From assembly GCA_964536205.1 (NCBI GenBank), contig CAZHVT010000004.1, forward strand, positions 17,960 to 81,959: a stretch of 64,000 nucleotides of DNA, written 5' to 3'. The notes under the pieces are model-generated. The model saw nothing but the letters and a program-made list of their open reading frames with translations, ran no database searches and was not told where the DNA came from. This DNA is from an uncultured Gammaproteobacteria bacterium (GTDB lineage: Bacteria; Patescibacteriota; Patescibacteriia; Magasanikbacterales; GCA-002688135). Both the position numbers and the translations under genes were made by a program. The first letter of the stretch is position 1, and each line of letters starts with the position of its first letter. This document shows positions 4,873 to 24,988 of this stretch, piece by piece.

Positions 4873-4886
4873 AACCCCAAAAAGAC

Positions 4887-6181: not shown

Positions 6182-6187
6182 TGAACT

Positions 6188-6207: not shown

Positions 6208-6217
6208 CTCGTGTCTC

Positions 6218-6562: not shown

Positions 6563-6745
6563 GATATCGCTACACGATATTTCATCACCCGACAGGGTGA
6601 TCTAATAATTAACAATAAGATGGGCGCCGGATCTCAGCAGATACAGTCTTCTGAGATCCGGAACTCATCCGGAAACTGATCCAAGATAAAGGTATAAGAT
6701 CCAACAGAACCTTCTTAATAAAATAATTGTTTGTAGATACAAATT

Positions 6746-6828
6746 CGTTTTGGCTGCAAAGCGCTCAAAGCTCCTCGACGATACTTCGGTATCGCCTCAT
6801 CGCTTATTCACGCTTTTCGCCGAAAACG
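6746..6828 (+). ncRNA. candidate structured RNA element, copy A, in the rpsJ-rplC spacer
   Basis: About 85-nt hairpin. Outer stem CGTTTTGGCTGCAAAGCG / CGCTTTTCGCCGAAAACG encloses the core CTCAAAGCTCCTCGACGATAC-TTCG-GTATCGCCTCATCGCTTATTCACG. Homologous to 14161-14249. Confidence 0.4.
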
Positions 6829-6987
6829 ATATTCATATCTACTAAACACTATTTTATCAAAAAGATTCATGGAAAACATACCCACATCACGGAATCAGAG
6901 GAGTATAAAGAAGATACATGCGGATTCCCGAATGGAATTCGTACACAATTCGACATATTAAGGCATGCATAGCATGTCATGTTGAGT

Positions 6988-7024
6988 GGTATCCTTTATA
7001 TTCATTAGAGATACCTCTTTTTTT
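6988..7024 (+). terminator. terminator-like hairpin plus T7 run abutting the rplC start codon; candidate attenuator
   Basis: GGTATC-ctttatattcatta-GATACC-TCTTTTTTT, followed directly by ATG at 7025. Confidence 0.4.
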
Positions 7025-7843: not shown

Positions 7844-7881
7844 AATCATAGAACGTAGAACATAGAACGTACAACATTAAT

Positions 7882-8511
7882 ATGAAAGCACCTCTGTACA
7901 ACATCAAAGGAGAAAAACAGCGGGAAGTCGAACTTCCAGCAGCTGTCTTTGGTGTAGAAACAGAAGCTTCAATTATTCAAGAAGTAGTAGTAGCTTTTGA
8001 GGCAAATCAACGTCAGCAATTCGCACATACAAAAGATCGTGGAGATGTTTCAGGTGGTGGTAAAAAACCATGGAAGCAAAAAGGAACAGGACGTGCGCGT
8101 CATGGATCTATCCGGTCACCTTTGTGGGTTGGTGGTGGTGTGACATTTGGTCCACGCAATAACAGAAATTTCAAAAAGAAAGTAAACAAAAAAGTTGCAC
8201 GAAAAGCACTCAAAATGGTGTTGTCAGATCGTGCATCACATGGAGTCGTATCTTTGATTGATACCTTTGATTTGAAAGAAGGTAAAACAAAAACATGCGC
8301 ACAGCTCGTGAAAGCGGTTGGTGCTGAAAAAGCAAAACGCGTGTTGTTTGTTACAAATGGTGTCAACAAAGATGTGGTTCGATGTGTAAATAATATCCCT
8401 AACGCAGAAGTTACTTCTGTGGCGGACCTTAATGCATACACTGCGATTAAGCATAAAGCATTGGTCATGGAGGAAGGAACAATCGAAGCATTAACCACAC
8501 GATTGAAATAA
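7882..8511 (+). CDS. rplD: 50S ribosomal protein L4
   Basis: 209 aa, canonical S10-operon position. Confidence 0.95.
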   Translation: MKAPLYNIKGEKQREVELPAAVFGVETEASIIQEVVVAFEANQRQQFAHTKDRGDVSGGGKKPWKQKGTGRARHGSIRSPLWVGGGVTFGPRNNRNFKKKVNKKVARKALKMVLSDRASHGVVSLIDTFDLKEGKTKTCAQLVKAVGAEKAKRVLFVTNGVNKDVVRCVNNIPNAEVTSVADLNAYTAIKHKALVMEEGTIEALTTRLK

Positions 8512-8515
8512 TTGT

Positions 8516-9025
8516 ATGTCATTCTTAGGAAAATGGTTTAAAAAGGATAAGCAAGAACGTCTGGATAAACAGACAGATGTTGATGTTGATGCAGAACAAA
8601 AAATCGAAAAATCGAAAAAACCAGAAATCGATAGAACTGAGATAAAATCTGAAAAGAAAAAGGAAGATGCAAAAAAAGCAGGTACTAAGAAAGATGAGGA
8701 AGAAAAAGTAGATGCGCCAATGATGACACTGAAAACGCCAGACTACATGTCGAATATCATTAAGCGATTGCATGTAACAGAAAAGGCTGCAGATGCTGAA
8801 TCACAATCAGTTTACACATTTGTAGTAGACATGAAGGCAACAAAGAATGAAATTGCTAAAGAGATTAAACGTACATATAACGTGACACCTGAAAAAATTC
8901 GTGTCATGAATATGCGTGGGAAACGAGTACGATGGGGTCGAAATCGTGGGCAGCGTTCAGGTTGGAGAAAAGCTATGGTTGCTTTGAAAAAGGGTGAAAA
9001 GATTAATCTTCACGAAGGAACTTAA
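8516..9025 (+). CDS. rplW: 50S ribosomal protein L23 with about 68-aa K/E-rich N-terminal extension; alternative start at 8720
   Basis: C-terminal 100 aa ([23 protein letters not shown]...) are L23. Upstream part is low-complexity KE-rich. Confidence 0.9.
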
Positions 9026-9030
9026 TTCGT

Positions 9031-9870
9031 ATGGCGATTAAACGATATAAACCAACAACTCCCGGAAGACGCAAATCTAGTGTGAACACCACAAAAGATT
9101 TGACGCAGAAACGACCGGAAAAAAGTTTGCGTGTTATCAAAAAGCGAAAAGCTGGACGATCACGTGGGCGAATTGCGGTACGTCATCGTGGTGGGGGAGC
9201 AAAACGGTTTATTCGAATTATCGATTTCAAACGAACAAAGTTTGATGTACCTGCAACAGTTACTGCGGTAGAATACGATCCAAATCGTGGAGCACGCATC
9301 ATGTTGTTGCTATACAAAGATGGTGAAAAACGATATTCATTGGCGCCACAAAAAATCAAAGAAGGTGATACGGTTATTTCATCTGAAAAAGAAGTTGATT
9401 TGAAACCAGGAAACAGAACAAAGTTGAAAAACATTCCGGTAGGTTTGGATGTGCATGATATCGAATTGCAGCCGGGCGCAGGATCACGCATGGTTCGCGG
9501 CGCTGGAGGTTCAGCTCGATTGCGTGCATTGGAAGGAAAATACGCATTGATCAAATTGCCATCAGGAGAAATTCGAAAGGTATTGGCAGAATGTAGTGCG
9601 ACACTCGGCGCTGTTTCAAATCCAGATCACAACTTGGTTCGATACGGAAAAGCTGGCCGAACACGTCACCGAGGTTTCCGACCAACAGTTCGTGGTAAGG
9701 TTATGAATCCATGTGATCACCCTCACGGTGGTGGTGAAGGTTCTACCTCAATTGGTATGACTCATCCAAAAACACCATGGGGAAAGCACGCATTGGGTGT
9801 CAGAACACGAAAGTCGAAAAAGTTCAGCAACAAATTTATTGTAAAACGTCGTTACCATAAAGGAAGGTAA
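9031..9870 (+). CDS. rplB: 50S ribosomal protein L2
   Basis: 279 aa with the GRNxxGxITxRHRGGG-like motif ([11 protein letters not shown]) and C-terminal HPHGGGEG. Confidence 0.97.
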
Positions 9871-9883
9871 ACAAAGCGATTAG

Positions 9884-9941
9884 CGTCTAGCGTTTAGCGT
9901 TTAGAAAATTTCTAATCGCTAAACGCTGTACGCTATACGCT
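9884..9941. repeat. word-built imperfect palindrome, family 1 (AGCGTTTAGCG words), copy a
   Basis: AGCGATTAGCGTCTAGCGTTTAGCGTTTAGAAA / TTTCTAATCGCTAAACGCTGTACGCTATACGCT. Lies between rplB and rpsS. Confidence 0.7.
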
Positions 9942-9949
9942 CAAATATT

Positions 9950-10234
9950 ATGTCTAGAAGTCTTAAAAAAGGACCATACGTTGACGAGAAACTGATGAAA
10001 AAAATCGGGAAGTTAAAGCAAGGTGATTCTACGGTCGTGAAAACCTGGGCTCGTCATTCAACAATCGCTCCGCAAATGGTGGGATTTACGATTGGTGTAC
10101 ACAATGGAAAGGATCATATTCCTGTGTATGTTGTTGAAAATATGGTTGGACATAAATTAGGTGAATTTGCTCCAACACGTAAATTTGTTCGTCATGGTGG
10201 TAAATTACAAAAGACACAAGAGAAGAAAAAATAG
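9950..10234 (+). CDS. rpsS: 30S ribosomal protein S19
   Basis: 94 aa, [12 protein letters not shown]... Confidence 0.95.
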
Positions 10235-10237
10235 AAT

Positions 10238-10705
10238 ATGGATATTAAAGCACACGCAAAATTTGTTCGAATCTCACCACGCAAAGTTCGCTTGGTAACA
10301 GGTTTAGTGAAAGGCATGACAGTGCCGCATGCGTTGGTGCAATTAAAAATGACAACAAAACGATCAGCTCCAGTAGTCAAAAAGTTGATCGAATCAGCAA
10401 TGGCAAATGCTCGCCATAATTTCAAGGTAGACCCTGAAGCGCTTGTGATTTCAGAAGCGCTGGTGAACCAAGGGCCGACCATGAAAAGATGGCGACCGCG
10501 TGCCATGGGGCGTGCAGCGAAAATTCGCAAACGCACATCACATATCAGCATCACACTTTCAGATATGAAGGGAGATGCAAAACCAGTTGAAAAAACTGAA
10601 GCGGTAAAGGAAGAAAAACCAAAAGTCGAAGCAAAAAAGGATGCAGCAGAAGCTCCAAAGAAACCAGAAAAGAAGCAGGAAGAGGCAAAGGCCGCAAAAA
10701 AATAA
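10238..10705 (+). CDS. rplV: 50S ribosomal protein L22 with K/E/A-rich C-terminal extension
   Basis: N-terminal 110 aa match L22. The tail is EAVKEEKPKVEAKKDAAEAPKKPEKKQEEAKAAKK. Confidence 0.93.
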   Translation: MDIKAHAKFVRISPRKVRLVTGLVKGMTVPHALVQLKMTTKRSAPVVKKLIESAMANARHNFKVDPEALVISEALVNQGPTMKRWRPRAMGRAAKIRKRTSHISITLSDMKGDAKPVEKTEAVKEEKPKVEAKKDAAEAPKKPEKKQEEAKAAKK

Positions 10706-10735
10706 TTCTTGATTCATAATTCATAATTCCTACAC

Positions 10736-11383
10736 ATGGGTCACAAAGTACATCCAAAAATTTTCCGCATGCAGGTCATCTACAAATGGCCATCACGTTG
10801 GTTTGCGAAATTGAATAAAGAAGAGTATCGAAAAAATCTTCGACAAGATATTGAGATGCGCGAATTTATTCGTAAGCAATGTAAAGATGCGGGCGTGGAT
10901 GAAATTAAGGTAGAACGTGACTTATCAGGAGAGGTAACCATCACATTGACAGTCGCAAAGCCAGGGCTTATTATTGGTCGCGGTGGATCGGGTGTTGAGG
11001 ATCTCACAACAAAACTTGAAAAGAAGATTTTGAAGGGAAAGAATAAGATTCGCATGAATGTGGTTGAAATCAAGAAACCAAATCTTTCAGCTCGAGTTGT
11101 TGGAATGAACATGGCTGCAGATCTTGAAAAACGAATGCCATATCGTCGTGTATTGAAACAGGCACTTGATCGAGTTGATAAAGCAGGAGCAAAAGGTGTG
11201 CGCGTTATGGTTGCAGGTCGATTAAATGGTGCAGATATTGCTCGCCGCGAAACATTATCACGTGGAAAAATTCCTTTACAGAATCTTCGTGCAGATATTG
11301 ATTATGCGCGTGTGAATGCTCACACCATTTACGGAGTGATTGGAATTAAGGTATGGATTTATAAAGGTGAGGTGTTCGAATAA
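10736..11383 (+). CDS. rpsC: 30S ribosomal protein S3
   Basis: Begins [11 protein letters not shown] and contains a KH domain. Confidence 0.95.
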
Positions 11384-11388
11384 GTTAT

Positions 11389-11814
11389 ATGTTGATCCCA
11401 AAGAAAGTAAAACACAGAAAGTGGCATAAAGGACGTCGTCGCAACAAAGGTGTTGCACAAACAAAGACGACGGTTGATTTTGGTGCATATGGATTGAAAT
11501 CACAGTCACACGCTTGGGTAACATCCCGACAAATTGAGGCTGCACGTCGTGCAATTACACGTCACATCAAACGTGGTGGAAAGCTCTGGATTCGTATTTT
11601 CCCGGACAAACCAATTACCAAAAAAGGTAATGAAATGCCTATGGGAAAAGGAAAGGGAGCTGTTGATCACTATGTGGCAATTGTAAAACCAGGATGTATT
11701 ATTTTCGAATTGGATGGTGTTGAGAAAGATCTAGCGAGACGAGCATTCGAATTGGCAGCACACAAATTACCAGTCAAAACTTTGTTTGTTGAGAAAAATG
11801 AAATCAGAATTTAA
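11389..11814 (+). CDS. rplP: 50S ribosomal protein L16
   Basis: Begins [21 protein letters not shown]. Confidence 0.95.
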
Positions 11815-11819
11815 GTTAT

Positions 11820-12005
11820 ATGGCTAAGAAAGAAAAATTCTCAGTGCATGACACAAAAGCACTCAAACAAATGTTGAATGATAAACAAGTAGAACTTGCA
11901 GGATTAAGATTTCAAGCATCAAACAAAGCATTGAGACAGGTAAACAAAATTAGTATTGTTCGACGCGACATTGCTCGCATCAGAACAGCACTAGCACAAA
12001 AATAA
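11820..12005 (+). CDS. rpmC: 50S ribosomal protein L29
   Basis: 61 aa, operon position. Confidence 0.88.
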   Translation: MAKKEKFSVHDTKALKQMLNDKQVELAGLRFQASNKALRQVNKISIVRRDIARIRTALAQK

Positions 12006-12010
12006 TTAGT

Positions 12011-12283
12011 ATGGATAAAGGCACAACAACGCAAAAAGATGTCATCAAGCGAGTATTTTCTGGCGTGGTGGTAAAAAAGACAGCCGATAAAACGGTGCGT
12101 GTTAAAGTTGCGCGAACAGTTGTGCACAGTAAATACAAAAAACGATATACAAGACATGAAAATTATCTCGTCCATGATCCAAAAAATCAGTTTGAGGTAG
12201 GTCAAAAAGTTTCGTTTGAACAATGTCGTCCCATTTCAAAAATGAAACGATGGCGAGTATTGTACGAATCAGCAAAGAAATAA
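12011..12283 (+). CDS. rpsQ: 30S ribosomal protein S17
   Basis: 90 aa, S17 family. Confidence 0.9.
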
Positions 12284-12284
12284 T

Positions 12285-12656
12285 ATGTTACAACAAGAGT
12301 CAAAATTGTTATCAGCAGATAATAGTGGCGCAAAGCGGCTCAAGGTTATTCGTGTTCTTGGAGGATATAAAAAACGCTATGCGAGAATCGGCGATATCAT
12401 TACATGTTCAGTAAAAGAAGCAACTCCACGCGGACAAGTAAAAAAGGGTGAGGTGGTACATGTGGTATTGGTACGAAGCAAAAAAGAGACAGTACGTCCT
12501 GATGGAACAGCAGTACGATTTTCAGAAAACGCCGGGGTAATTATCGATAAGAAAAATAAGGAACCGCGAGCAACACGTATTTTCGGTCCAGTCGCTCGTG
12601 AATTACGCGCAATGGGATATAACAAAATTATCTCACTCGCACCTGAAGTACTCTAA
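12285..12656 (+). CDS. rplN: 50S ribosomal protein L14
   Basis: 123 aa, [17 protein letters not shown]... Confidence 0.95.
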
Positions 12657-12657
12657 A

Positions 12658-12727
12658 AGCGATTAGCGATTAGCGTCTAGCGTTTAGAAAAAATTCTAAT
12701 CGCTAGACGCTGTACGCTAAACGCTAC
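12658..12727. repeat. word-built imperfect palindrome, family 1, copy b
   Basis: AGCGATTAGCGATTAGCGTCTAGCGTTTAGAAAAAATTCTAATCGCTAGACGCTGTACGCTAAACGCT, nearly identical to copy a. Lies between rplN and rplX. Confidence 0.7.
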
Positions 12728-12733
12728 AAAATT

Positions 12734-12979
12734 ATGGCTAAACAACACGTAACATCTGGAGATAACGTCAAAGTGCTTGCCGGTAAAGACAAAGGTAAAA
12801 CCGGTAAGATTCTTCAGGTATTTCCAAAAAAGAATCGCGTTGTTGTTGAAGGTGTAAATGTCATGAAAAAACATTTGAAATCACGCGGAAATGAAAAAGG
12901 ACAAGTAATTGAACTATCAGCGCCTATCCATATTTCAAATGTGAAGAAAGTAGCTGAAGAAAAACCAGCTAAGAAATAA
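12734..12979 (+). CDS. rplX: 50S ribosomal protein L24
   Basis: 81 aa, KOW motif. Confidence 0.9.
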
Positions 12980-12980
12980 T

Positions 12981-13532
12981 ATGTCAGCACTCAAAGAATT
13001 GTACAACACAGCAGTACTGCCGAAACTCAAGCAAGAACTTGGGTGTGACAACGTGCATGCATGTCCAAAACTTGAAAAAGTTGTTGTTCATGTAGGCTTT
13101 GGAAAACATGCAAAAGATGGTGAGTATATCAAAAATGTAAAAAAGACATTGCGAAACATTACAGGACAAGAACCTGTAGATGCACCCGCAAAGAAATCAA
13201 TTTCAAACTTTAAGGTTCGTGAAGGAAATATTATTGGCGCAAAAGTTACGCTACGTGGGAAATTGATGTATGACTTCGTGGAACGTATTATCAATGTGAC
13301 ACTGCCGCGAGTTCCGGATTTCCGTGGATTGAAAGTAAAAAATATTGATAGTAATGGAAACATGAATTTCGGATTTAAAGACCAGATCGCATTTCCAGAA
13401 AGTTCGCCAGAAGATATTCATAATCCGCATGGTGTACAAGTTACAGTTGTTACGACAGCAGATAATCACAAAGATGGGTTTATGTTGTTGGACACACTCG
13501 GATTTCCATTTGCAAAGGAAGAAACTAAATAA
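12981..13532 (+). CDS. rplE: 50S ribosomal protein L5
   Basis: 183 aa, L5 family. Confidence 0.95.
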
Positions 13533-13537
13533 CTCAT

Positions 13538-13723
13538 ATGGCTACAAAAGCTCAGATAATCAAATCTCAAAAGAAGCAAAAGTTCTCAACGCGTGGTGTG
13601 AACAGATGTTGGCGTTGTGGACGAAAACGCGGATACATGAGAAAATTTGATCTCTGCAGAATTTGTTTCCGTGAATTAGCTAACGCCGGACAAATTCCGG
13701 GAGTACGTAAATCATCTTGGTAA
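13538..13723 (+). CDS. rpsN: 30S ribosomal protein S14, zinc-binding short form (type Z)
   Basis: 61 aa with CWRCGRKRG...CRICFRE (a CxxC...CxxC zinc motif). Confidence 0.9.
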
Positions 13724-13727
13724 ATAT

Positions 13728-14120
13728 ATGATGACAGATCCAATCGCAGACATGTTGACCAGAATTAGAAACGCATGTATGGTACGCAAACCATCAGTGT
13801 CTTTGCCGTACTCAAAATTGAAATTTGCGATTGCACAGAAAATGGCTGAAGCAGGATATGTGAAAGAGGTTGTAAAGGAAGATGGTGCTGGAAAACCAAC
13901 CATGACCATTTCACTCAAATACAAAGGCAAGCTTCCACATATTACAGAAATCACACGTGTAAGTAAGCCCGGATTGCGTATTTACGTGAAATCAGACGCA
14001 ATTCCTAAAGTGAAAGGTGGATACGGAACAGCATTTTTATCAACATCACAAGGTTTAATGACAGACGAGCAGGCGCGCGAAAAGGGCGTCGGAGGAGAGC
14101 TTGTATGCACACTATATTAA
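13728..14120 (+). CDS. rpsH: 30S ribosomal protein S8
   Basis: 130 aa, MMTDPIADMLTRIRNA... Confidence 0.95.
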   Translation: MMTDPIADMLTRIRNACMVRKPSVSLPYSKLKFAIAQKMAEAGYVKEVVKEDGAGKPTMTISLKYKGKLPHITEITRVSKPGLRIYVKSDAIPKVKGGYGTAFLSTSQGLMTDEQAREKGVGGELVCTLY

Positions 14121-14160
14121 GGAGGATCATTCAAAATAAGTACTGATTGAATATATGACA

Positions 14161-14249
14161 TCCACTTCTGCTAAAAAGGGTTCAAAGCTCGTCAACGATG
14201 CGTCCGGCATCGCTTCCTCGCTTGTTCACCCTTTTTATCTAGAAGTGGA
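14161..14249 (+). ncRNA. candidate structured RNA element, copy B, in the rpsH-rplF spacer
   Basis: Outer stem TCCACTTCTGCTAAAAAGGG / CCCTTTTTATCTAGAAGTGGA enclosing the core TTCAAAGCTCGTCAACGATGC-GTCCG-GCATCGCTTCCTCGCTTGTTCAC. About 80% identical to the copy A core. Confidence 0.4.
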
Positions 14250-14288
14250 GGCCATCTATCCTAATCAGTATTATTCCGAATAATCCAT

Positions 14289-14834
14289 ATGTCACGTATC
14301 GGACGAAAACCCATTACGATTCCGGAGGGCGTCAAAGTCGCAATTAGCGATGGGTATATTGTGGTTAACGGACCAAAAGGTGAATTGAAACAAACAACAA
14401 ATCCTGCGGTAAATATTGATATTAAAGATAATGTAATTGGAGTAACAGTGAATCAACCTGAAGATAAGAAGGAGCGAGCATTGTGGGGGTTGTATGGATC
14501 ACTTGTCGCCAACATGATTACAGGAGTCACAGAGGGTTACGAAAAACAGTTGGAAGTTCGTGGTGTTGGATTTAAAAGTAAAGTAGATGGAAAGAAATTG
14601 GTTTTGGATGTCGGATATTCTCATCAAGTAAATTACGAGATTCCAGAAGGCATTGAAATCAAGGCAGAAAAAAACATTTTAACAATTACAGGAATTGATA
14701 AACAACAAGTTGGATTTGTCGCAAGTCGTATTCGGTCAGTTCGAAAACCTGAACCATATAAGGGGAAAGGAATTCGATATGTCGACGAACAAGTCCAAAT
14801 GAAAGCTGGTAAAGCAGCAAAGGCTGCAGGATAA
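14289..14834 (+). CDS. rplF: 50S ribosomal protein L6
   Basis: 181 aa, MSRIGRKPITIPEGVKV... Confidence 0.95.
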   Translation: MSRIGRKPITIPEGVKVAISDGYIVVNGPKGELKQTTNPAVNIDIKDNVIGVTVNQPEDKKERALWGLYGSLVANMITGVTEGYEKQLEVRGVGFKSKVDGKKLVLDVGYSHQVNYEIPEGIEIKAEKNILTITGIDKQQVGFVASRIRSVRKPEPYKGKGIRYVDEQVQMKAGKAAKAAG

Positions 14835-14837
14835 CAT

Positions 14838-15215
14838 ATGAAAACAGCACACAAAACATCAAATAAAGTTGTTGCGAAAAAAAGACGTCAAAAGCGCGTA
14901 CGCGCACAGATTTCTGGTACCGCAACTCGACCGCGTTTGGCTGTTTTCAGATCAAACACTGCAATACGCGCACAACTTATCGATGACGTAAAAGGCACAA
15001 CATTAGTTTCTGTTGATTCAAAAAAAATGGATGAAAAAGACGCAGGCGAGAGAAAAGCAAAAGTCGCACGAGCATTTAATGTGGGACGTGAAGTTGCAAA
15101 ACAAGCTCAAGCAAAAAAAATAGATACAATTGTATTTGATCGTGCAGGATATGCATATCATGGCCAAGTCAAAGCGGTCGCCGATGGCGCACGCGAAGGC
15201 GGCCTTCAATTTTAG
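14838..15215 (+). CDS. rplR: 50S ribosomal protein L18
   Basis: 125 aa, RPRLAVFRSN motif region. Confidence 0.9.
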   Translation: MKTAHKTSNKVVAKKRRQKRVRAQISGTATRPRLAVFRSNTAIRAQLIDDVKGTTLVSVDSKKMDEKDAGERKAKVARAFNVGREVAKQAQAKKIDTIVFDRAGYAYHGQVKAVADGAREGGLQF

Positions 15216-15223
15216 GAACTTAT

Positions 15224-15760
15224 ATGCCAGAAGCAGCAACAGTACAAAAAAAGCAGCAAGGAAATCGAGGAAGAAATCAACGTCCTCGTGGTAACAGACG
15301 ACCACGTCGTGAAGAGCGTGAATTCGAACAACGCGTAGTAGATCTTGCGCGTGTCACGCGTGTGACATCTGGTGGAAAACGAATGAGCTTTCGTGCGACT
15401 GTTGTGGTTGGTGATAAAAAAGGAAGAGTAGGTTACGGAATCGCAAAAGGAAAAGATGTGCAAGCAGCAATTCAAAAAGCTGTAGCAAAAGGTGAAAAAT
15501 CCGTCATTCGTGTTCCCATGAAAAAGAATACGATCCCGCACGCAATCAACAAAAAATTCAAAGCAGCAAAAGTTTTATTGAAACCAGCTCCAGATGGTAC
15601 AGGAGTTATTGCAGGTGGTGCGGTTCGTATCGTATTAGAATTATCAGGAATTAAAGATATTGTTGGAAAGATGCTTGGATCAACAAGTAAACACAACAAT
15701 GTACATGCAACCATCGAAGCACTAAAAGACTTGCAGTTGGCTGCAGCAAAAAAAGCATAA
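15224..15760 (+). CDS. rpsE: 30S ribosomal protein S5 with RG-rich N-terminal extension
   Basis: 178 aa. The S5 dsRBD plus C-terminal domain follow a QQGNRGRNQRPRGNRRPRREE head. Confidence 0.95.
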   Translation: MPEAATVQKKQQGNRGRNQRPRGNRRPRREEREFEQRVVDLARVTRVTSGGKRMSFRATVVVGDKKGRVGYGIAKGKDVQAAIQKAVAKGEKSVIRVPMKKNTIPHAINKKFKAAKVLLKPAPDGTGVIAGGAVRIVLELSGIKDIVGKMLGSTSKHNNVHATIEALKDLQLAAAKKA

Positions 15761-15764
15761 ATAT

Positions 15765-16190
15765 ATGTCGTTATCTCTCAACACCCTCACCAAAAAAGGT
15801 AAGAATGCAAAACCTCGTCGTGGACGCGGTAATGCTTCTGGTGCAGGAACATATTCAGGAAGGGGAATGAAAGGGCAAAAATCTCGCTCAGGTTCTTCTG
15901 GTTTGAAAGAAATGGCATTGCGGCGCGTAGTCCAGCGAATTCCAAAAAAACGTGGATTTAAGCCAGTTCGAACAAAACCAGAAGGTGTAACATTGGCAAC
16001 TATCGAGAAACATTTTGAAGAAAATGCTATAATCACTCCTAAGGTTCTACGAAAAGCTGGATACATCAAGACTCCGCAAGTACGCATCATAAACACAGGT
16101 ACACTCAAAAAGAAATTTTCATTTAAATCATGCAATGTAACTGAAGGCGCACGCGCAGCTATTGAAGCGGCTGGTGGAACTATTGCATAG
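15765..16190 (+). CDS. rplO: 50S ribosomal protein L15. Follows rpsE directly, so no L30 gene
   Basis: 141 aa with a G/R-rich N-terminus typical of L15. Only 4 nt separate rpsE and rplO. Confidence 0.9.
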   Translation: MSLSLNTLTKKGKNAKPRRGRGNASGAGTYSGRGMKGQKSRSGSSGLKEMALRRVVQRIPKKRGFKPVRTKPEGVTLATIEKHFEENAIITPKVLRKAGYIKTPQVRIINTGTLKKKFSFKSCNVTEGARAAIEAAGGTIA

Positions 16191-16306
16191 AAGATGCGTA
16201 AATCGTAAATCGTAAAGCGTAATGAGGGAAAAGGTATCGCTGCACGCGATCTATTAATATGTCGCCCTTGGCGACTCCGCTACCCGCATTACGAGTTACT
16301 AATAGT

Positions 16307-17581
16307 ATGATCGAGCAACTAAAGAAAATCTGGAAGATCAAAGAATTGCGTAACAGCATTCTTTTTGTCATTGGTACACTTATAATTTTCCGCATTGTTG
16401 CACATATTCCATTACCGGGAGTAGACGTAGCAAGTTTGCGTCAATTCTTCAGCAACAATCAATTACTCGGATTGTTGAATATTTTCTCCGGTGGAACACT
16501 TCAGAATTTCTCCGTTATTGTGATGGGTGTTGGTCCATTTATTACCGCATCCATTATTCTGCAATTGCTGACAATGGTAATTCCAAAACTAGAAGAACTT
16601 TCAAAAGAAGGAGAATACGGACAAAAGAAAATCAACCAATATACACGATTGCTCACCGTCCCACTTTCATTTCTACAAGGATACGGAACAATCCAACTCA
16701 TCAATCAGTCAGCACACAACATCTTCCCAGACCTCACAGGATTCATGATGTTAAAAACACTTCTGACAGTTACAGCTGGAACAATATTCCTCATGTGGCT
16801 CGGTGAGTTAATTTCAGAAAAAAACATCGGAAACGGAATCTCATTCCTCATCTTCGCAGGTATTATTGCTGGATTGCCACAATTCGTACAACAAGCTGCC
16901 GTAACATTTACTGAGGCAGACTTCATCACATACTTACTCTACGCAATCCTAACTGTCGGAACGGTCGCTGGTGTGGTCTACATTACGGAAGCGCAGCGAA
17001 ACATTCCTGTGGTGTATGCACGTCATGTACGTGGTTCACGAATGGGCGGAGGATCACGATCATTTCTGCCATTGCGTTTAAATATGGGTGGAATGATCCC
17101 CATCATTTTCGCAATTTCTGTTGTGCTATTCCCATCACTAATCGCACAATTTTTCATCAATGCACAAACCCCTTGGGTCGCAAACTTCGCGGCCAACACT
17201 ATCGCATTCTTTGAAAACCAATTCTACTACGGATTATTCTATTTTGCGCTCGTGATGATTTTCACATTCTTCTACGCATCTGTCATTTTCCATCCAGAAA
17301 AAATCGCAGAGAATTTACAAAAACAAGGGGGATTCATTCCAGGTATTCGACCAGGAAAACACACACAAGAATACATCAACACCATCAAAAACCGCATCCT
17401 ACTTTTCGGAGCACTTTTCTTGTCAGTGATCGCAGTTTTCCCATTAGTACTCCAAGCATTCACAAACACAACAGTCCTCACGATCGGTGGTGTAAGTATT
17501 CTGATCGTCGTGGCTGTTGTCATCGACATCATCAAAAAAATCGAAGCTCAAATACAAATGAGAGCATACGATCAAGTCTAA
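16307..17581 (+). CDS. secY: preprotein translocase subunit SecY; alternative upstream start at 16259
   Basis: 10-TM protein. MIEQLKKIWKIKELRNSILFVIGTL matches the SecY N-terminus. Confidence 0.93.
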   Translation: MIEQLKKIWKIKELRNSILFVIGTLIIFRIVAHIPLPGVDVASLRQFFSNNQLLGLLNIFSGGTLQNFSVIVMGVGPFITASIILQLLTMVIPKLEELSKEGEYGQKKINQYTRLLTVPLSFLQGYGTIQLINQSAHNIFPDLTGFMMLKTLLTVTAGTIFLMWLGELISEKNIGNGISFLIFAGIIAGLPQFVQQAAVTFTEADFITYLLYAILTVGTVAGVVYITEAQRNIPVVYARHVRGSRMGGGSRSFLPLRLNMGGMIPIIFAISVVLFPSLIAQFFINAQTPWVANFAANTIAFFENQFYYGLFYFALVMIFTFFYASVIFHPEKIAENLQKQGGFIPGIRPGKHTQEYINTIKNRILLFGALFLSVIAVFPLVLQAFTNTTVLTIGGVSILIVVAVVIDIIKKIEAQIQMRAYDQV

Positions 17582-17636
17582 GCTGTCATCCTGTAGTCGT
17601 ACGGGATCCATGCCACTAATCGAGAGAAATGAAGTC

Positions 17637-17659
17637 AAATCCCTATACATGGGATTTTT
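17637..17659 (+). terminator. rho-independent terminator after secY
   Basis: AAATCCC-tatacat-GGGATTTTT. Confidence 0.55.
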
Positions 17660-17732
17660 ACTTTACCATAGACAAACCCACAAAAATCAACTAAAGTAAT
17701 CAGAGTTCATTGAAACAAAAGAGGTGCAACAT

Positions 17733-18395
17733 ATGAAAGGACAAGCTATGGAACATGATGAAGGTACGCAAGAAGCTGATGAAGAAGTCAAAGGCTTTGA
17801 TTTCTTGAGCGACATGATCGGACAAGAAGTAATGGAAACCGCGCTAAGAAATGGCCTATCCTTAAGTGATTTTCGTAAACTAGGTGAAGATGCGCTGATG
17901 CAACAAATTGCCCCAACAATCAAAGCATACACAACAGGAGCTGGCGATGCTGATATGGAGAATCAAGTAAAAGCAGAGATAGAAAAAAACATCATCGATT
18001 GCGATGCGAGTCCATTCATTCACGACGGGTGGTCCGTCTATCCTGGAAATCACATCAAGGGTGGTCAACTCGAGTGGGATCCGGGGAAAATCGAGCTCTG
18101 GCTCTCGCAAGAACAGAAAAACAGTTCGATTCCAGGACACGAGCTGCGCAAGCAGCTAGTAGAACAGAAACCACTGAATGCCAACGTGCTGGACTACCTG
18201 CTAGCCAACCCTCACCTCATTCCCGAGAAGTGGAAGGGTCAGTACGTCTTCTTCTGGGGAACCATTTACCGCGGCCGGCGCGGCAACCTGCTTGTCCGTT
18301 GTCTTTGCTGGAGTAGTGATGCCTGGCACGGGCACTATCACTGGCTGGGCAATCGCTGGACCGACGGCCATCCGGCGTTGGTGCTCGCACCGTAA
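17733..18395 (+). CDS. hypothetical protein; the 3' half is GC-rich, unlike flanking DNA
   Basis: RBS AAGAGG sits 8 nt before ATG 17733. Inserted between secY and adk. Composition shifts at about 18040. Confidence 0.45.
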   Translation: MKGQAMEHDEGTQEADEEVKGFDFLSDMIGQEVMETALRNGLSLSDFRKLGEDALMQQIAPTIKAYTTGAGDADMENQVKAEIEKNIIDCDASPFIHDGWSVYPGNHIKGGQLEWDPGKIELWLSQEQKNSSIPGHELRKQLVEQKPLNANVLDYLLANPHLIPEKWKGQYVFFWGTIYRGRRGNLLVRCLCWSSDAWHGHYHWLGNRWTDGHPALVLAP

Positions 18396-18470
18396 CTAGC
18401 CCTTTGGGCTCACATACTTAGTACTACTAGTCCTCGACCCTTAGTTCTTTGTCCTTAATATTTTAATCCA

Positions 18471-18512
18471 CAGACCTACAATGGTGCAACGCACTGGTGT
18501 AGGTCTTTTTTA
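18471..18512 (+). terminator. terminator hairpin plus T-run
   Basis: AGACCTACA-(17-nt loop)-TGTAGGTCT-TTTTT. Confidence 0.5.
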
Positions 18513-18513
18513 T

Positions 18514-18542
18514 TTGTCATCAAAGCAAAATTTCCTTATAAT
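18514..18542 (+). promoter_or_regulatory. sigma70-type promoter for adk-map
   Basis: TTGTCA, 17 nt, TATAAT. Confidence 0.5.
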
Positions 18543-18575
18543 ACAGCTGTATTTACATAATCAAAAAAACCTCAT

Positions 18576-19253
18576 ATGGCACCCAGCCAAGAACTTGAGG
18601 GTGGTCCGCCGATTATCATCGTGTTGGGTCCGCCAGGTTCCGGAAAAGGAACACAAGCGCAGCGCTTGAAAGATCGCTGTAATATGTCACATTTATCACC
18701 AGGAGCACTCCTGCGAGAGCTCAAGAAAAAAGATCCAAAAAAACTTCCGCCAAAAACACGGCGTGAATTAAAGAAGATGGAAAGAGGTGATATGGTAGGG
18801 CATTGGTTGGTGTATGATCTCATGTTTCCCAAAATCAAAAAAGCATTAAAAAAAGGAAACGGAGTTATTATTGATGGAGCCATTCGTACAGTAGAACAGG
18901 TTGAAGGTTATACAGAATTTTTTGAAAAAAATGACTTGATGAATCGAGTGATCGTAGTATACGTGCATGTTGCAAAAGTTGAGGCCGTAAAACGATTGAA
19001 AGCGCGAAGAATTAAAGTAAATGGAAAATGGACAAAGCGCGATGATGATGTCAACAAAAAAGCAATGGAACATCGATTCGCTGTACAAGGAAACGCAGCA
19101 CAGCGACCAGTATTAGCTGCACTAAAAAAACATGTGTTAGTTGAAAAAGTTGATGGACACGGAACCATCAATCAAATCGAAAAACGCATCGCAAATCAAT
19201 TAGTAAAAAAAGGAGCTCTCAAGAAAAAAAGTGGGAAGTACATCTGTATATGA
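18576..19253 (+). CDS. adk: adenylate kinase
   Basis: P-loop IIVLGPPGSGKGTQAQRL, 225 aa. Confidence 0.88.
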   Translation: MAPSQELEGGPPIIIVLGPPGSGKGTQAQRLKDRCNMSHLSPGALLRELKKKDPKKLPPKTRRELKKMERGDMVGHWLVYDLMFPKIKKALKKGNGVIIDGAIRTVEQVEGYTEFFEKNDLMNRVIVVYVHVAKVEAVKRLKARRIKVNGKWTKRDDDVNKKAMEHRFAVQGNAAQRPVLAALKKHVLVEKVDGHGTINQIEKRIANQLVKKGALKKKSGKYICI

Positions 19254-20026
19254 GCCTCATTAAATCGAAAGAAGATATTGACTTGATAAGAGAAGGAGGG
19301 CATAAACTTTCACGTATTGTGGAAGATCTTGTGAAACTCGTAAAACCTGGGGCGAAAACAGATGATATAGATAAAGCTGCGGAAGATGCAATTGTTGCAC
19401 TAGGCGCACGCCCAGCATTTTTGAACTATGCGCCAGGTGGGCACAATCCATTCAATTCAACAATCTGTGCATGTATTAATGAAGAAGTTGTACATGGCCC
19501 AGCTCATCCAGGGCGTGAATTAAAGGAAGGAGATATTTTTTCGATAGATATTGGAATGGAATATAAGGGGCGATATACTGACATGGCGGTGACTGTTCCG
19601 GTTGGAAAAATTTCAGACGAAGCAGAAAAAATAATTGATGTCGCAAAGCGATCTTTTTTTGCAGGGTTAGAAGGGATTAAATCTGGCGCATCTTTAAATG
19701 TAATTGGAAAAGCTGTACAAAAGCTTGTTGAGGGAGAGGGGTATCATATTGTTCGCGCATTGGTAGGGCATGGTGTGGGCCATGCAGTTCATGAAGATCC
19801 ACAAGTTCCAAATTTTGATGATCCGCGCGCAGAAAAAATCATCTTGGAAGAAGGAATGGTGTTGGCGATCGAACCTATGGTCACAACACATTCATATGAA
19901 GTAGAAACTGCGCCCGATGGTTGGACAGTTATTCCAAAAGATGGAGGATTGTCAGCACATTGGGAGCATACGATAGTAGTGACAAAAGATGGACACGAAA
20001 TACTGACACAATATGTCGAAGCTTGA
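19250..20026 (+). CDS. map: methionine aminopeptidase type I
   Basis: 258 aa with metal-ligand motifs (DIGMEYKGRYTDM, HGVGHAVHE). Overlaps the adk stop by 4 nt. Confidence 0.93.
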   Translation: MSLIKSKEDIDLIREGGHKLSRIVEDLVKLVKPGAKTDDIDKAAEDAIVALGARPAFLNYAPGGHNPFNSTICACINEEVVHGPAHPGRELKEGDIFSIDIGMEYKGRYTDMAVTVPVGKISDEAEKIIDVAKRSFFAGLEGIKSGASLNVIGKAVQKLVEGEGYHIVRALVGHGVGHAVHEDPQVPNFDDPRAEKIILEEGMVLAIEPMVTTHSYEVETAPDGWTVIPKDGGLSAHWEHTIVVTKDGHEILTQYVEA

Positions 20027-20402
20027 AGGTTTAAAAATGCTCGGGATCGATTATGGTGAAACCCATATCGGTTTTGCGTTTAAACCAGAAGGATCAAAGC
20101 TTGCTGTCCCACATCAAATTTTCGACAGAAAACCTGGAGATCGAGAAGTATTGATTGAGGAAGTAAAAGATATTATTGAAGAGTTAGAAGTAGAGATGGT
20201 GATCGTAGGCTTGCCTCTCACGCTCCAAGGAAAGCCAGACAAGATGTGCGATCGCGTAGCATTATTCATTCATGATCTGCGCAAAAATATCTCGATAAGG
20301 GTCGATCAAGAAGATGAACGCATGACAACGCGTATGGCTGGCAAGCATGCTCACGATCTCTCTGCTGCAATCATTTTACAAACGTATATAGATACTAACT
20401 AA
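20013..20402 (+). CDS. ruvX: YqgF/RuvX-like Holliday-junction resolvase-like nuclease
   Basis: MLGIDYGETHIGFAF... matches the YqgF N-terminal motif. Confidence 0.8.
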   Translation: MSKLEGLKMLGIDYGETHIGFAFKPEGSKLAVPHQIFDRKPGDREVLIEEVKDIIEELEVEMVIVGLPLTLQGKPDKMCDRVALFIHDLRKNISIRVDQEDERMTTRMAGKHAHDLSAAIILQTYIDTN

Positions 20403-20406
20403 GTGT

Positions 20407-20961
20407 GTGAGTTACAACACAAAAGCTGTAATACTTTCACGTCGTCCTTATCTTGAGGACGATTGTTTAGTTACGATGTTTACACAGCGATATGGAAAGA
20501 TACAGGCGCGAGCGATTTCAGCACTCAAGCCAAAAAGTAAATTACGCGGGCACTTAGAGCAGGGTAGATTGGTTGATGTCATGCTCACACAAATAGACAG
20601 ACAGGGAAAACTCGCACAAATCATCACATTAAAAAATTATGCCTCGTCTGATCCAATACGATTTACAGCACTAACCGCGATATTAGAATTGACGGACTTG
20701 ATGTCACAACCTACTCCAGATATAGATTTGTGGAGAAGCGTACAATCAGCGTTGAGTGGAGTGCGAGATATCTCATCTCTAGATCAGTTAATAAACACAT
20801 TATCAGCAGGGATGATGGGGATTCTTAAAAGCGGCGGAATTGGAATGGAATCTGCATCAAATCTCGGCCAAATTCACGCACATATTCAATGGAATCTCGG
20901 TAAAAAAATCAATAGTCTAAGCAAGATTGGGGCACTTGAACTCAAACAAACAATTAGTTAA
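20407..20961 (+). CDS. recO: RecO-like DNA repair protein (short), GTG start
   Basis: N-terminus AVILSRRPYLEDDCLVTMFTQRYGKIQARA resembles the RecO OB-fold N-terminal domain. Confidence 0.55.
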   Translation: MSYNTKAVILSRRPYLEDDCLVTMFTQRYGKIQARAISALKPKSKLRGHLEQGRLVDVMLTQIDRQGKLAQIITLKNYASSDPIRFTALTAILELTDLMSQPTPDIDLWRSVQSALSGVRDISSLDQLINTLSAGMMGILKSGGIGMESASNLGQIHAHIQWNLGKKINSLSKIGALELKQTIS

Positions 20962-20970
20962 GATGCGTCT

Positions 20971-22257
20971 ATGATACACATAAAAGATATCGCTAAACAC
21001 GAGGGAAAAGAGGTAGAAATCAATGGTTGGGCCTACAATATGAGATCAAGCGGCAAGCTTGGCTTTATTCAGTTACGAGACGGATCAGGGATAATTCAGG
21101 CTGTGGTATCAAAGTCTGATGTTTCAGAAGATGCATGGCGAGCTGTGCAAGATATGACAATAGAATCATCTGTGAAGGTGAGAGGATTAGTAAAGAAGGA
21201 TGATCGATCAGCTTCAGGATTTGAGCTTCAGGCAATCGACGTATCTCTCATTCACAAAGCTCCGGAATATCCAATTGGAAAAAAAGAGCATGGCCCGGAT
21301 TTTTTATTGAACAATAGGCATCTTTGGTTACGCTCAAAACGACAATGGGCAATCCAGCGAATAAGATGGGGAATCACAAAAGCAATCTATGATTTTCTCG
21401 AACAAGATGGATGTGTAAAATTTGATTCACCAATACTCACACCAAATGCATGCGAAGGAACAACGACACTTTTTGAAATTGATTATTTTGATGAAACTGC
21501 ATATCTATCACAATCGGGACAGTTATATCTGGAAGCCGGTGCATATTCACTCGGAAGAGTATTTGATTTCGGCCCAGTTTTCCGTGCAGAGAAATCCAAA
21601 ACACGAAGACACCTTATGGAGTTTTGGATGCTCGATGTAGAACTCGCATTTGTGAATTGGCAGGGTAATATGGATCATCAAGAAGCGTTGATCAAATTTG
21701 TTGTTCAATCCATACTAGAAAAATATAGTAATGAATTGAAGATTTTAGAACGAGATACAACGCTATTAGAAGGTATGAATAAGCCATTTCCGCGTCTCAC
21801 TCATGCAGACGCTGTTGCAAAGTTGAAAGAGTTAGGTTCTGATATTGGTGAGCGTGATGATCTTGGAGGAGATGATGAAACAATACTCACACAACAGTAC
21901 AATACACCTATTTTCATTGAAAAATATCCTGCAGAAGTAAAAGCATTTTACATGAAACGAGATCCAGAAGATGATTCTCTCGCTCTATGTTCTGATATGC
22001 TCGCGCCAGAAGGATATGGAGAAGTGATTGGAGGAGCGCAGCGTGAAGAAGATCACGATACACTACTCAAAAGAATTAATGAACACAAATTGAGTCCAGA
22101 AACATTTCAGTGGTATCTCGATCTAAGAAAGTATGGAGCAATAGAAACTTCAGGATATGGATTAGGATTGGAAAGGCTTGTTTCATGGATATGCGGATTA
22201 AAGCATGTCAGAGAGACAATCCCATTTCCACGAATGCTCAATCGACTGTATCCGTAA
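20971..22257 (+). CDS. asnS: asparaginyl-tRNA synthetase (class IIb)
   Basis: 428 aa with an anticodon-binding OB fold. FRAEKSKTRRHLMEFWMLDVELAF is the AsnRS-type motif 2. Confidence 0.85.
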   Translation: MIHIKDIAKHEGKEVEINGWAYNMRSSGKLGFIQLRDGSGIIQAVVSKSDVSEDAWRAVQDMTIESSVKVRGLVKKDDRSASGFELQAIDVSLIHKAPEYPIGKKEHGPDFLLNNRHLWLRSKRQWAIQRIRWGITKAIYDFLEQDGCVKFDSPILTPNACEGTTTLFEIDYFDETAYLSQSGQLYLEAGAYSLGRVFDFGPVFRAEKSKTRRHLMEFWMLDVELAFVNWQGNMDHQEALIKFVVQSILEKYSNELKILERDTTLLEGMNKPFPRLTHADAVAKLKELGSDIGERDDLGGDDETILTQQYNTPIFIEKYPAEVKAFYMKRDPEDDSLALCSDMLAPEGYGEVIGGAQREEDHDTLLKRINEHKLSPETFQWYLDLRKYGAIETSGYGLGLERLVSWICGLKHVRETIPFPRMLNRLYP

Positions 22258-22408
22258 CAAGTAAACAACAAGTACCAAATAACAAAAAACAAACAAATCG
22301 GAAAATTCAAATCTCAAATTCCAAAAAAGCACGATCATGACGTTTGAAATTTGGTGCCTGAGAATTGTAATTTCCCGCAGGGCTATGTACATAGAACCAA
22401 ATGTAAAA

Positions 22409-23494
22409 ATGCTGAAAAAAACCTTCTTGGGATCTACTATGTTCCTCATCATTGTGTTTTTACTATTTTTTATAGTGATGTGGGGGAAAGAAGCAGCGAT
22501 AGAAGAGCCGAAGGTTATTGGTTTATCGGGAGAATTAATAAAAGAAGATGGTGTATTTTGGGTCGATAAGCAGGTGATATTTTCTGAGAAAAATTTGGAT
22601 GGTTTGGTGGGTGAAACAGTTGCGGTTGTCGGAACGCTAGATGACGAGGGATTATTGATGATTGATCAATTATTAACATCACCAAAAGAAGAACCAAAAA
22701 AAATACCTGAAAGTGAAACATATCGAGCTACGGCAAAATCGAATCTAGCATTTTCTGTGAATGTTCCAAATAGTTGGCAGGTGCGAGATAAATCGACAGA
22801 TGCAAATGGATGGCTCGTACTTACAAAAGGAAAAAAGAAAATCGAACTTAATAGATTTCCGGATGCAGAAGATATAGGTGTGCAATTCGAACCAGTTCCG
22901 GTAAGTGAAAAACCAATTCTCATAAATGGCTTCCCGTATCTTGAGCAAAGAGCAATAGCACAAACAACAAAACGAATGATGGATTACATAACTCCATCAG
23001 AAGAGTGTTTGAAAGATGATGCATGTCCGCGATTCATGGCATCATCAAACGAATCCGATCCAGAAACAACTGTAGTTATACAGAATGTGATGAGTGATTT
23101 AGTATTTCTACCAGAACCACAAGGATGGAAAATATTACGACACTCATTAAAAAATTCGGATTGGAATATGTATTTGTACTACCCACCCGAGTTTGAGCTT
23201 GTACCATCGGAGAAAGGATATGTATTGATGAGTCCAGCGGAAAACATTGATATTCATATTGCAGATGAAATTCCAGGACATCATATTACTGGCGTGGGAG
23301 AGAAAGAAACTGAAATCATCAAGCTTCCAACAAGAGATGAAAAGTTGTATCACACAGAAAGTCCTAAGGACGGTAAGCCATTTGACGCAATGTTATTGAG
23401 AAATCCAGATGACACGCAACACATCCTCATCACCGGTTTGGGTCATGGATTCAACGCAGCAATCCGAACAATAGTATTTGAGGAAAAACAGTAG
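22409..23494 (+). CDS. hypothetical secreted or membrane-anchored protein
   Basis: The internal Met gives an N-terminal TM/signal segment (MLKKTFLGSTMFLIIVFLLFFIVMW). No recognised domain. Confidence 0.45.
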   Translation: MLKKTFLGSTMFLIIVFLLFFIVMWGKEAAIEEPKVIGLSGELIKEDGVFWVDKQVIFSEKNLDGLVGETVAVVGTLDDEGLLMIDQLLTSPKEEPKKIPESETYRATAKSNLAFSVNVPNSWQVRDKSTDANGWLVLTKGKKKIELNRFPDAEDIGVQFEPVPVSEKPILINGFPYLEQRAIAQTTKRMMDYITPSEECLKDDACPRFMASSNESDPETTVVIQNVMSDLVFLPEPQGWKILRHSLKNSDWNMYLYYPPEFELVPSEKGYVLMSPAENIDIHIADEIPGHHITGVGEKETEIIKLPTRDEKLYHTESPKDGKPFDAMLLRNPDDTQHILITGLGHGFNAAIRTIVFEEKQ

Positions 23495-23543
23495 ACGTGA
23501 TTTTGAATTTCGAGTATACTAAGACAGTAATTTAAGGAATTTT

Positions 23544-24983: not shown

Positions 24984-24988
24984 TCTAT

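Follow-up and report, generated by a model that had tools for sequence, protein, structure and literature searches.

In most bacteria the spacer between rpsE and rplO, the genes for ribosomal proteins S5 and L15, is the usual site of rpmD, which encodes L30 (uL30). What is to be made of a ribosomal gene cluster in which these two neighbours practically abut, and to what kind of organism does it belong? The question is raised by the window analysed here: 64 kb of contig CAZHVT010000004.1, for which gene calls were taken from a listing of open reading frames (ORFs) together with the sequence, and identities from Pfam. The genes concerned form part of a co-oriented block, uninterrupted from rpsL to map and with very short spacers (rpsL-rpsG-fusA-tuf-rpsJ ... 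rplR-rpsE-rplO-secY-adk-map), which we read with high confidence as an ordinary ribosomal operon of the Candidate Phyla Radiation (CPR), carried by a marine Parcubacteria-group bacterium related to Uhrbacteria. The features at the centre of the argument, with lengths in amino acids (aa) or nucleotides (nt), are these:

14838–15215, plus strand: rplR (L18), 125 aa, upstream of rpsE; Pfam PF00861, E 9e-39
15224–15760, plus strand: rpsE (S5), 178 aa; Pfam S5 N-terminal domain at residues 34–98 (E 1e-22), C-terminal domain at 111–171 (E 7e-25)
15761–15764, plus strand: rpsE-rplO spacer, 4 nt, ATAT between the TAA of rpsE and the ATG of rplO
15765–16190, plus strand: rplO (L15), 141 aa, full length; Pfam PF00828, E 4e-12; aligns with E. 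coli L15 residues 1–142
16259–17581, plus strand: secY, 440 aa in the ORF listing; Pfam PF00344, E 6e-100 (public gene calls start 16 codons further downstream, giving 424 aa)

With only 4 nt between the S5 stop and the L15 start there is no room for an intervening gene. The original prediction had placed the end of rpsE at 15760 and the start of rplO at 15765 with no rpmD between them; the ORFs, the sequence itself and searches by tblastn and hidden Markov model (HMM) all confirm this. The HMM was built from the L30 proteins of E. coli, B. subtilis and T. thermophilus, the E. coli sequence having been checked against NC_000913, and no L30 was found in any of the six frames of the window (best tblastn E 0.38, best HMM E 3.5); the best tblastn match, which is a basic region of L15, was rejected as not significant. 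Neither the spacer nor a fusion to S5 or L15 yielded a remnant of L30. The junction recurs, with 100% identical L15, on five public contigs from independent assemblies (JGI, ENA and Logan), which excludes a local mis-assembly. The ATG of rplO is preceded by just AAAAAAGCATAAATAT, and no Shine-Dalgarno (SD)-like motif lies within 20 nt upstream; given this and the 4-nt spacer, we propose, as the likeliest mode of translation for rplO, coupling to rpsE or termination-reinitiation on one polycistronic mRNA.

For a wider view we searched with SecY, taking one genome per GTDB species and fetching each locus with 10-kb flanks; the results below draw on the 80 best loci. Both genes are present in 62 Parcubacteria-like and Saccharimonadia loci, and in every one of them L15 follows S5 at a distance of -17 to +38 nt (S5 stop to L15 start); the corresponding gap in E. 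coli measures 186 nt and contains rpmD. No match to L30 was obtained in the ~1.2 Mb of fetched CPR loci, whereas the same probe detects L30 directly upstream of L15 in eight of nine Armatimonadota loci (E 1e-13 to 1e-22; the L30 ORF of the ninth is partly N-masked), was validated on E. coli too, and is therefore sensitive enough. The L30-less junction of the window is, in short, the state of its whole radiation. This agrees with published surveys, in which no L30 was found in 69 complete CPR genomes or drafts examined (Tsurumaki et al. 2022, bioRxiv 10.1101/2022.01.07.475337, extending Brown et al. 2015), and the same authors report close proximity of the S5 and L15 genes in CPR.

Could rpmD nonetheless be retained, having moved elsewhere in the genome or diverged beyond recognition? 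Our search covered 64 kb and the probe derives from three non-CPR sequences; moreover, the clade has undergone rearrangements of gene order elsewhere, the detached alpha operon being one example. Set against this are the published surveys just cited and the contrast between the silent CPR loci and the positive Armatimonadota ones, such that we regard retention as improbable. Our reading, that of an ordinary CPR operon, would instead have L30 absent genome-wide (a statement drawn from the literature and from phylogenetic bracketing) and lost once, in the CPR common ancestor, with a 50S subunit that would assemble without it. The protein is described as late-assembling, surface-located and dispensable (Galperin et al., bioRxiv 10.1101/2021.01.31.429008).

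Turning to the identity of the host, the best SecY match (98% identity) lies on contig NZCD01000036.1, titled 'Parcubacteria group bacterium isolate ARS125' (locus L006; hereafter ARS125). The next matches, at 51–61%, come from metagenome-assembled genomes (MAGs) titled Candidatus Uhrbacteria, Parcubacteria group or Patescibacteria group, with identity to Saccharimonadales at 39–43% and to the Armatimonadota set at 42–47%. A neighbour-joining tree was then calculated from 17 concatenated proteins (L3, L4, L2, S19, L22, S3, L16, S17, L14, L24, L5, S8, L6, L18, S5, L15 and SecY), using 2,893 trimmed columns, 66 taxa (the window, the fetched loci and E. coli) and 100 bootstraps. In this tree the window pairs with ARS125 (bootstrap 100); the pair sits within a 28-taxon clade comprising all of the Uhrbacteria-, Parcubacteria- and Patescibacteria-titled MAGs in that identity range (bootstrap 100); and this clade joins the Saccharimonadia to form a CPR group, apart from Armatimonadota and E. 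coli (bootstrap 99). DNA identity between the window and ARS125 is only 82.8% over 19.5 kb and the two are therefore congeneric, yet different species: they represent one genus-level lineage, a member of which was thus already in GenBank under a Parcubacteria label.

Gene order offers a second line of evidence. The infA-rpmJ-rpsM block is not found downstream of secY-adk-map in the window, in ARS125 or in 17 of the 18 Uhrbacteria-like loci with enough downstream sequence. In Saccharimonadia, infA and rpsM lie downstream of secY in 22/22 loci and rpmJ in 19/22, and in Armatimonadota all three genes do so in 6/6. Detachment of the block is a derived gene order common to the window and its clade, and an independent support for the placement. 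The genetic code is the standard one. Code 25, with UGA read as glycine as in Gracilibacteria and Absconditabacteria, was considered and rejected: TGA serves as the stop codon of 11 of the 62 genes, and conserved genes all run without interruption; its use as a stop excludes the UGA-recoding CPR lineages.

The concatenated ribosomal-protein phylogeny is the check that had been suggested alongside the claim of a Patescibacteria/CPR host, and it puts the window inside CPR; SecY and gene order point the same way, all three being independent of the features on which the claim had been built. One rival is a non-CPR bacterium with a reduced genome (from the Mollicutes, an insect or protist endosymbiont, or the Halanaerobiales) that lost rpmD on its own account. 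L30 is indeed among the ribosomal proteins most frequently lost outside CPR. The nearest neighbours of the window by both SecY and the 17 proteins are, however, Parcubacteria-, Uhrbacteria- and Patescibacteria-titled MAGs among which it is nested with a bootstrap of 100; it shares the derived gene order of that clade as well as the extensions on L23, L22 and S5 described below; and no Mollicutes, proteobacterial or clostridial genome appears among the 80 best loci. We therefore hold this rival to be very improbable, and the taxonomic call—a CPR bacterium—rests on phylogeny rather than on the absence of L30.

A word is needed on record titles. The title 'uncultured Gammaproteobacteria bacterium' is borne by many 'binchicken' third-party annotation (TPA) MAGs whose firm place is among Uhrbacteria and Parcubacteria (loci L007–L013, L016, L017, L019, L022, L024, L030, L034, L035, L037 and L067), and in those of them that hold both genes S5 and L15 abut, with no L30. 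These titles look like wrong placeholders. The titles 'Sulfotelmatobacter', 'Nevskiaceae' and 'Chlamydiae' on the Saccharimonadia-like loci L053, L065 and L073 look wrong too.

The original prediction had also pointed to low-complexity extensions on L3, L22, L23, S5 and the DNA-binding protein HU, and to a short zinc-ribbon S14. Extensions were measured by alignment to the E. coli orthologues (locus L086), and the corresponding features of the window are:

1446–1859, plus strand: rpsL (S12), 137 aa from the ATG at 1446; PF00164; carries the internal insertion reported for almost all CPR S12
7025–7843, plus strand: rplC (L3), 272 aa from the ATG at 7025; Pfam PF00297
7622–7840, plus strand: L3 C-terminal tail, +73 aa relative to E. 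coli; E/K/V-rich (36% E, 17% K)
8516–9025, plus strand: rplW (L23), 169 aa; Pfam domain begins at residue 80
8516–8755, plus strand: L23 N-terminal extension, ~80 aa by the domain border, +71 aa relative to E. coli; K/D/E-rich
10238–10705, plus strand: rplV (L22), 155 aa; Pfam domain ends at residue 107
10565–10702, plus strand: L22 C-terminal tail, about 46 aa, +45 aa relative to E. coli; K/A/E-rich
13538–13723, plus strand: rpsN (S14), 61 aa, short zinc-ribbon form with C24, C27, C40 and C43; PF00253, E 7e-25
15224–15307, plus strand: S5 N-terminal extension, residues 1–28, +23 aa relative to E. coli; R/Q/P/G/N-rich
52561–52989, minus strand: hup (HU), 142 aa; HU domain from residue 1 to ~91; tblastn E 4e-18 over residues 1–90 (B. 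subtilis and E. coli HU)
about 52561–52719, minus strand: HU C-terminal tail, ~50 aa, P/A/T/S-rich

All five extensions are real, as judged by the E. coli alignments, the Pfam borders and, for HU, the tblastn match (PF00216 is in addition precomputed for the database protein, P0001, that is identical to the HU of the window). S14 likewise proves to be the short form, with two CxxC pairs and 40 aa fewer than its E. coli counterpart; short zinc-type S14 is common outside CPR as well. S10 is longer than in E. coli by 12 aa at its N-terminus, and S19 has 94 aa as against 92. The biased-composition tails on L3, L22, L23, S5 and HU are probably disordered, and the charged ones would be solvent-exposed. 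Past a conserved EGALAGGKPGAT motif at its start, the tail of HU changes quickly from one near relative to the next, the alignment being loose. The tails known from actinobacterial HU proteins are K/A-rich and basic; that of the window is P/A/T/S-rich and not basic.

How deep do these tails go? Working outwards from the window, the acidic tail of L3 is found, among the sampled loci, only in the window, ARS125, L010, L011 and L024, and the HU tail only in homologues of 51–81% identity over the full alignment, more distant ones being 92–96 aa long and tailless. The upstream extension of L23 is open over 23–98 aa in 21 of the 24 loci measured in the clade of the window (46–98 aa in 20 of them), the shortest belonging to L038 (3 aa), L024 (5 aa) and L034 (23 aa); in Saccharimonadia it amounts to only 4–14 aa. 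The K/A/E-rich C-terminal tail of L22 spans 13–56 aa in the majority of loci from the Parcubacteria-like and Saccharimonadia groups and 0–7 aa in a few; outside CPR it measures 4–7 aa in Armatimonadota, leaving aside the mis-called outlier ORF of L044, and 1 aa in E. coli. The R/G-rich N-terminal extension of S5, finally, reaches 9–84 aa in CPR loci, the exceptions being L024 (3 aa) and L028, in which the contig cuts the start of the gene. In our sample, then, only the L22 tail and the S5 extension are CPR-wide and can be used as broad CPR markers. Taken together, the tails are nested, lineage-specific acquisitions at different depths of the tree and not one CPR signature, with the result that the idea of widespread extensions as a mark of CPR stands for L22 and S5, shrinks to the Uhrbacteria-like clade for L23, and for L3 and HU applies to near relatives only.

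Both the tight junction and the extensions might in principle be artefacts of assembly, frameshifts or wrongly chosen start codons. The identical junction is, however, present in those five independent assemblies and in another species; the C-terminal tails are independent of the choice of start and stay in frame as far as the stop codon; L23 has its upstream extension open in the great majority of the loci measured in the clade, as given above; and in ARS125 a palindromic element (see below) lies upstream of the ATG of the extended L23 ORF and not within the extension. An artefactual origin is, to our minds, scarcely credible.

Several points nonetheless weigh against the identification of the window as a CPR operon without L30, or at least temper it. 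It contains no rRNA genes, Rfam at the gathering threshold giving only three transfer RNAs (tRNAs). The tree is a distance tree with two non-CPR outgroups, and its loci were pulled in by SecY patterns and are thus a biased sample; its taxon labels are the titles of GenBank records, many of them visibly wrong. The N-terminal extensions of L23 and S5 depend on the choice of start codon. The search took in just 64 kb of the genome, and a relocated or highly divergent rpmD may, if improbably, lie elsewhere. L1 and L9 are both missing from the window, but their genes normally sit elsewhere. We sought rplA (L1) upstream: the longest public contig ends 4 kb beyond the window, with only unknown ORFs in that interval. 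The annotated genes of these 64 kb around the ribosomal operon all serve translation, replication, segregation, the envelope or stress response.

One part of the window is not explained by current knowledge, and that is the set of heptamer arrays and hairpins between its genes. Counted with Tandem Repeats Finder, the period-7 arrays are distributed as follows:

Window: 18 in 64 kb (3.7–4.9 copies each; 2.8 per 10 kb)
Dinucleotide shuffles of the window: 0.1 on average per 64 kb
ARS125: 24 in 21 kb (11 per 10 kb)
Other Uhrbacteria-like loci: 15 in 531 kb (0.28 per 10 kb)
Saccharimonadia loci: 1 in 613 kb (0.02 per 10 kb)
Armatimonadota loci: 1 in 162 kb

The arrays are strongly lineage-specific. 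Their positions in the window, and those of the related palindromic elements, are:

Period-7 arrays: 7849–7875, 9875–9941, 10702–10729, 12658–12726, 16197–16222, 28244–28260 and 38690–38718
Further period-7 arrays: 41005–41083, 44284–44312, 45724–45823, 52996–53024, 58022–58055, 60059–60147 and 61629–61658
Period-8 arrays: 37178–37204, 41958–42066 and 60464–60583
9871–9949: palindromic element between rplB and rpsS (L2-S19), unit TAGCGTT, -39 kcal/mol
12657–12733: palindromic element between rplN and rplX (L14-L24), unit TAGCGTT, -41 kcal/mol
ARS125, palindromic elements: 1584–1651, 2224–2293, 3147–3216, 3509–3582, 4773–4838 and 5455–5523
ARS125, further palindromic elements: 5785–5858, 6235–6304, 6560–6627, 7178–7231, 7437–7504 and 14003–14072

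Of the 23 period-7 and period-8 arrays in the window, 22 are intergenic, beginning 0–7 nt past stops or ending 3–8 nt ahead of starts; single heptamer arrays occupy the L3-L4, L22-S3 and L15-secY spacers. The units vary from spacer to spacer (TAGAACG, TAGCGTT, ATAATTC, CGTAAAT, ATACTAG and others) and almost without exception include TAG or TAA (or the complement). The arrangement of four copies of ATAATTC, then 6 nt, then ATG recurs before rpsC, relA/spoT and hup. SD-like motifs (GGA, GAG or AGG, 4–15 nt upstream) precede only ~9 of the 62 genes of the window, the other starts being mostly preceded by A/T-rich sequence or a heptamer array. Repeats fall within reading frames too: a period-8 array at 8599–8631, inside the N-terminal extension of L23, and a heptamer-like array of TGTCAAA (4.6 copies; 62512–62543, plus strand) inside the frame of leuS, where it encodes ...VKCQNPNVKCP... 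and has an inverted repeat nearby (62472–62519). The notion that leuS is split or truncated at the end of the window was rejected; its ORF is intact from ~61.8 kb and runs off the window.

Many of the arrays in the window form inverted pairs that give hairpins of -35 to -50 kcal/mol; hairpins with inverted heptamer arms fold at -35 to -42 kcal/mol, with z-scores of about -8 to -9. In ARS125 a palindromic element of 60–85 nt occupies at least 11 ribosomal-protein junctions, the same junctions measuring 1–5 nt in the window. Its 12 copies are of one sequence type, with arms made of tandem heptamers, (TAGTGAG)n and (CTACCAA/CTACTCA)n. This pattern would imply recent spread or loss within an essential operon. 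Sense and antisense stabilities of the heptamer hairpins, compared for G-U asymmetry, are equal, and a strand-specific RNA function thus finds no support in them. In E-value mode, Rfam returned over 4400–18700 only chance microRNA-like matches on the palindromes, which were discarded.

A second, longer element accounts for two odd large gaps in the ribosomal cluster. About 165 nt long, it is found at these positions:

Window: 14121–14288 (rpsH-rplF, the S8-L6 gap) and 6700–6875 (rpsJ-rplC, the S10-L3 gap)
ARS125: 8466–8635, 14640–14810 and 17274–17443

Each copy is one long hairpin (-50 to -61 kcal/mol, z-scores of -7 to -8.7) with a conserved apex, CTCAAAGCTC..TC..CGAT...ATC.C.TC.TCGCTT.TTCAC, and stems that vary without loss of pairing: a compensatory double change is seen at 21 of 29 consensus pairs, albeit in only five sequences. 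The two species carry the element at different junctions. Rfam gave no match to it, and a covariance model of its core, run over 1.33 Mb of the window and related loci, recovered the five training copies only.

It is conceivable, if on balance unlikely, that the spacer arrays and hairpins form a new class of elements, self-propagating or recruited to some function, and, as part of the same tentative proposal, that the ~165-nt hairpin is lineage-specific. Candidate roles for the arrays would include SD-independent initiation or reinitiation, termination in all frames (insulating one cistron from the next), and mRNA processing or stability; under such a scheme the S5-L15 spacer would be a junction still in a 'tight-coupled' state. 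Arrays and hairpins with so fast a turnover, in an essential and highly expressed operon of an SD-poor genome, are likelier to repay further work than the loss of L30.

Other observations on the window and its relatives can be given briefly. An ORF with no Pfam family (220–223 aa; 17724–18395, plus strand) lies between secY and adk and is called as a gene in public contigs too; its counterpart in ARS125 is at 11393–12004, and between the two species only the C-terminal half aligns in DNA. Downstream of map, at 20013–28246, are ruvX, recO, two class II aminoacyl-tRNA synthetase genes, scpA, scpB and others, the usual infA-rpmJ-rpsM-rpsK-rpsD-rpoA-rplQ block not following secY-adk-map. The stretch 28300–31550 has a G+C content of 0.48, against about 0.41, and its minus-strand ORFs (28322–28786, 29269–29688, 29991–30359 and 30945–31517) give no significant, or only marginal, Pfam matches; after it, at 31616–32989, come a tRNA-Met, a metallophosphoesterase gene, a second tRNA-Met and a tRNA-Leu. 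All nine loci titled Armatimonadota (L039–L044, L046, L047 and L049) have the order S8-L6-L18-L30-L15-SecY, the interval between L18 and L30 being under 120 nt; the cluster lies at about 7400–10000 of each locus (2200–4500 in L047). No S5 was found within 10 kb on either side in these nine loci with the S5 of the window and of E. coli as probes, and rpsE appears to have moved out of the spc cluster in that clade—a by-product that, like the arrays, is likelier to repay further work.

How, finally, does the window compare with what is already known? For the arrays, the nearest described case is that of the TAACTGA heptamers, direct repeats that are intergenic in marine Beggiatoaceae, cyanobacteria and Bacteroidetes (MacGregor 2015, PMC4679880). 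Like the arrays of the window, these are stop-bearing heptamers in 2–6 tandem copies, placed mostly a few nt upstream of starts and occurring also within ribosomal-protein operons, where SD sites are rare. They are, however, one conserved heptamer, whereas the units of the window are diverse (none is TAACTGA), often form inverted pairs with hairpins and are in some cases of period 8; the arrays of the window are therefore an analogue of the TAACTGA repeats and not a member.

For the operon itself, the closest relative is ARS125, which shares the gene order from rplC to scpB, the 4-nt S5-L15 spacer and the tails of L3, L22 and L23, with SecY 98%, S5 97% and L15 92% identical. Bacteria outside CPR provide a second comparison. 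L30 has also been lost in Mollicutes including Mycoplasma, in Blattabacterium, Neorickettsia, Portiera, Riesia, Blochmannia and Halanaerobiales, and some Alphaproteobacteria are likewise without it (Galperin et al., 10.1101/2021.01.31.429008); repeated loss outside CPR is stated by Tsurumaki et al. as well (10.1101/2022.01.07.475337). In these lineages, as in the window, rpmD is gone from an otherwise complete spc cluster, but they are phylogenetically unrelated to it and the losses are independent. Since L30 has been lost repeatedly outside CPR, its absence is a necessary and not a sufficient condition for membership. As a CPR trait it is upheld by the 62 loci and the literature alike; as a diagnostic taken alone it fails. 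This, together with the differing phylogenetic depths of the tails, is the practical use of the present analysis.

Set beside the published CPR complement (10.1101/2022.01.07.475337), in which L22 and L23 are enlarged (L23 by a CPR-specific N-terminal region found in part of CPR), S14 is of the small form and S12 has an internal region in almost all members, the window is alike in having no L30, adjacent S5 and L15 genes, a larger L22 and L23, a small S14 and the S12 insertion. It departs in two details: L3 in CPR tends to be smaller and the acidic 73-aa C-terminal tail of the window is absent from the published list, and the A/K-rich C-terminal region reported there for S19 is not seen in the S19 of the window. 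Nothing essential differs. A missing uL30, a larger L22 and L23 and a short S14 are all textbook traits of CPR, and the finding is in that sense correct but ordinary: a familiar operon of a familiar radiation.

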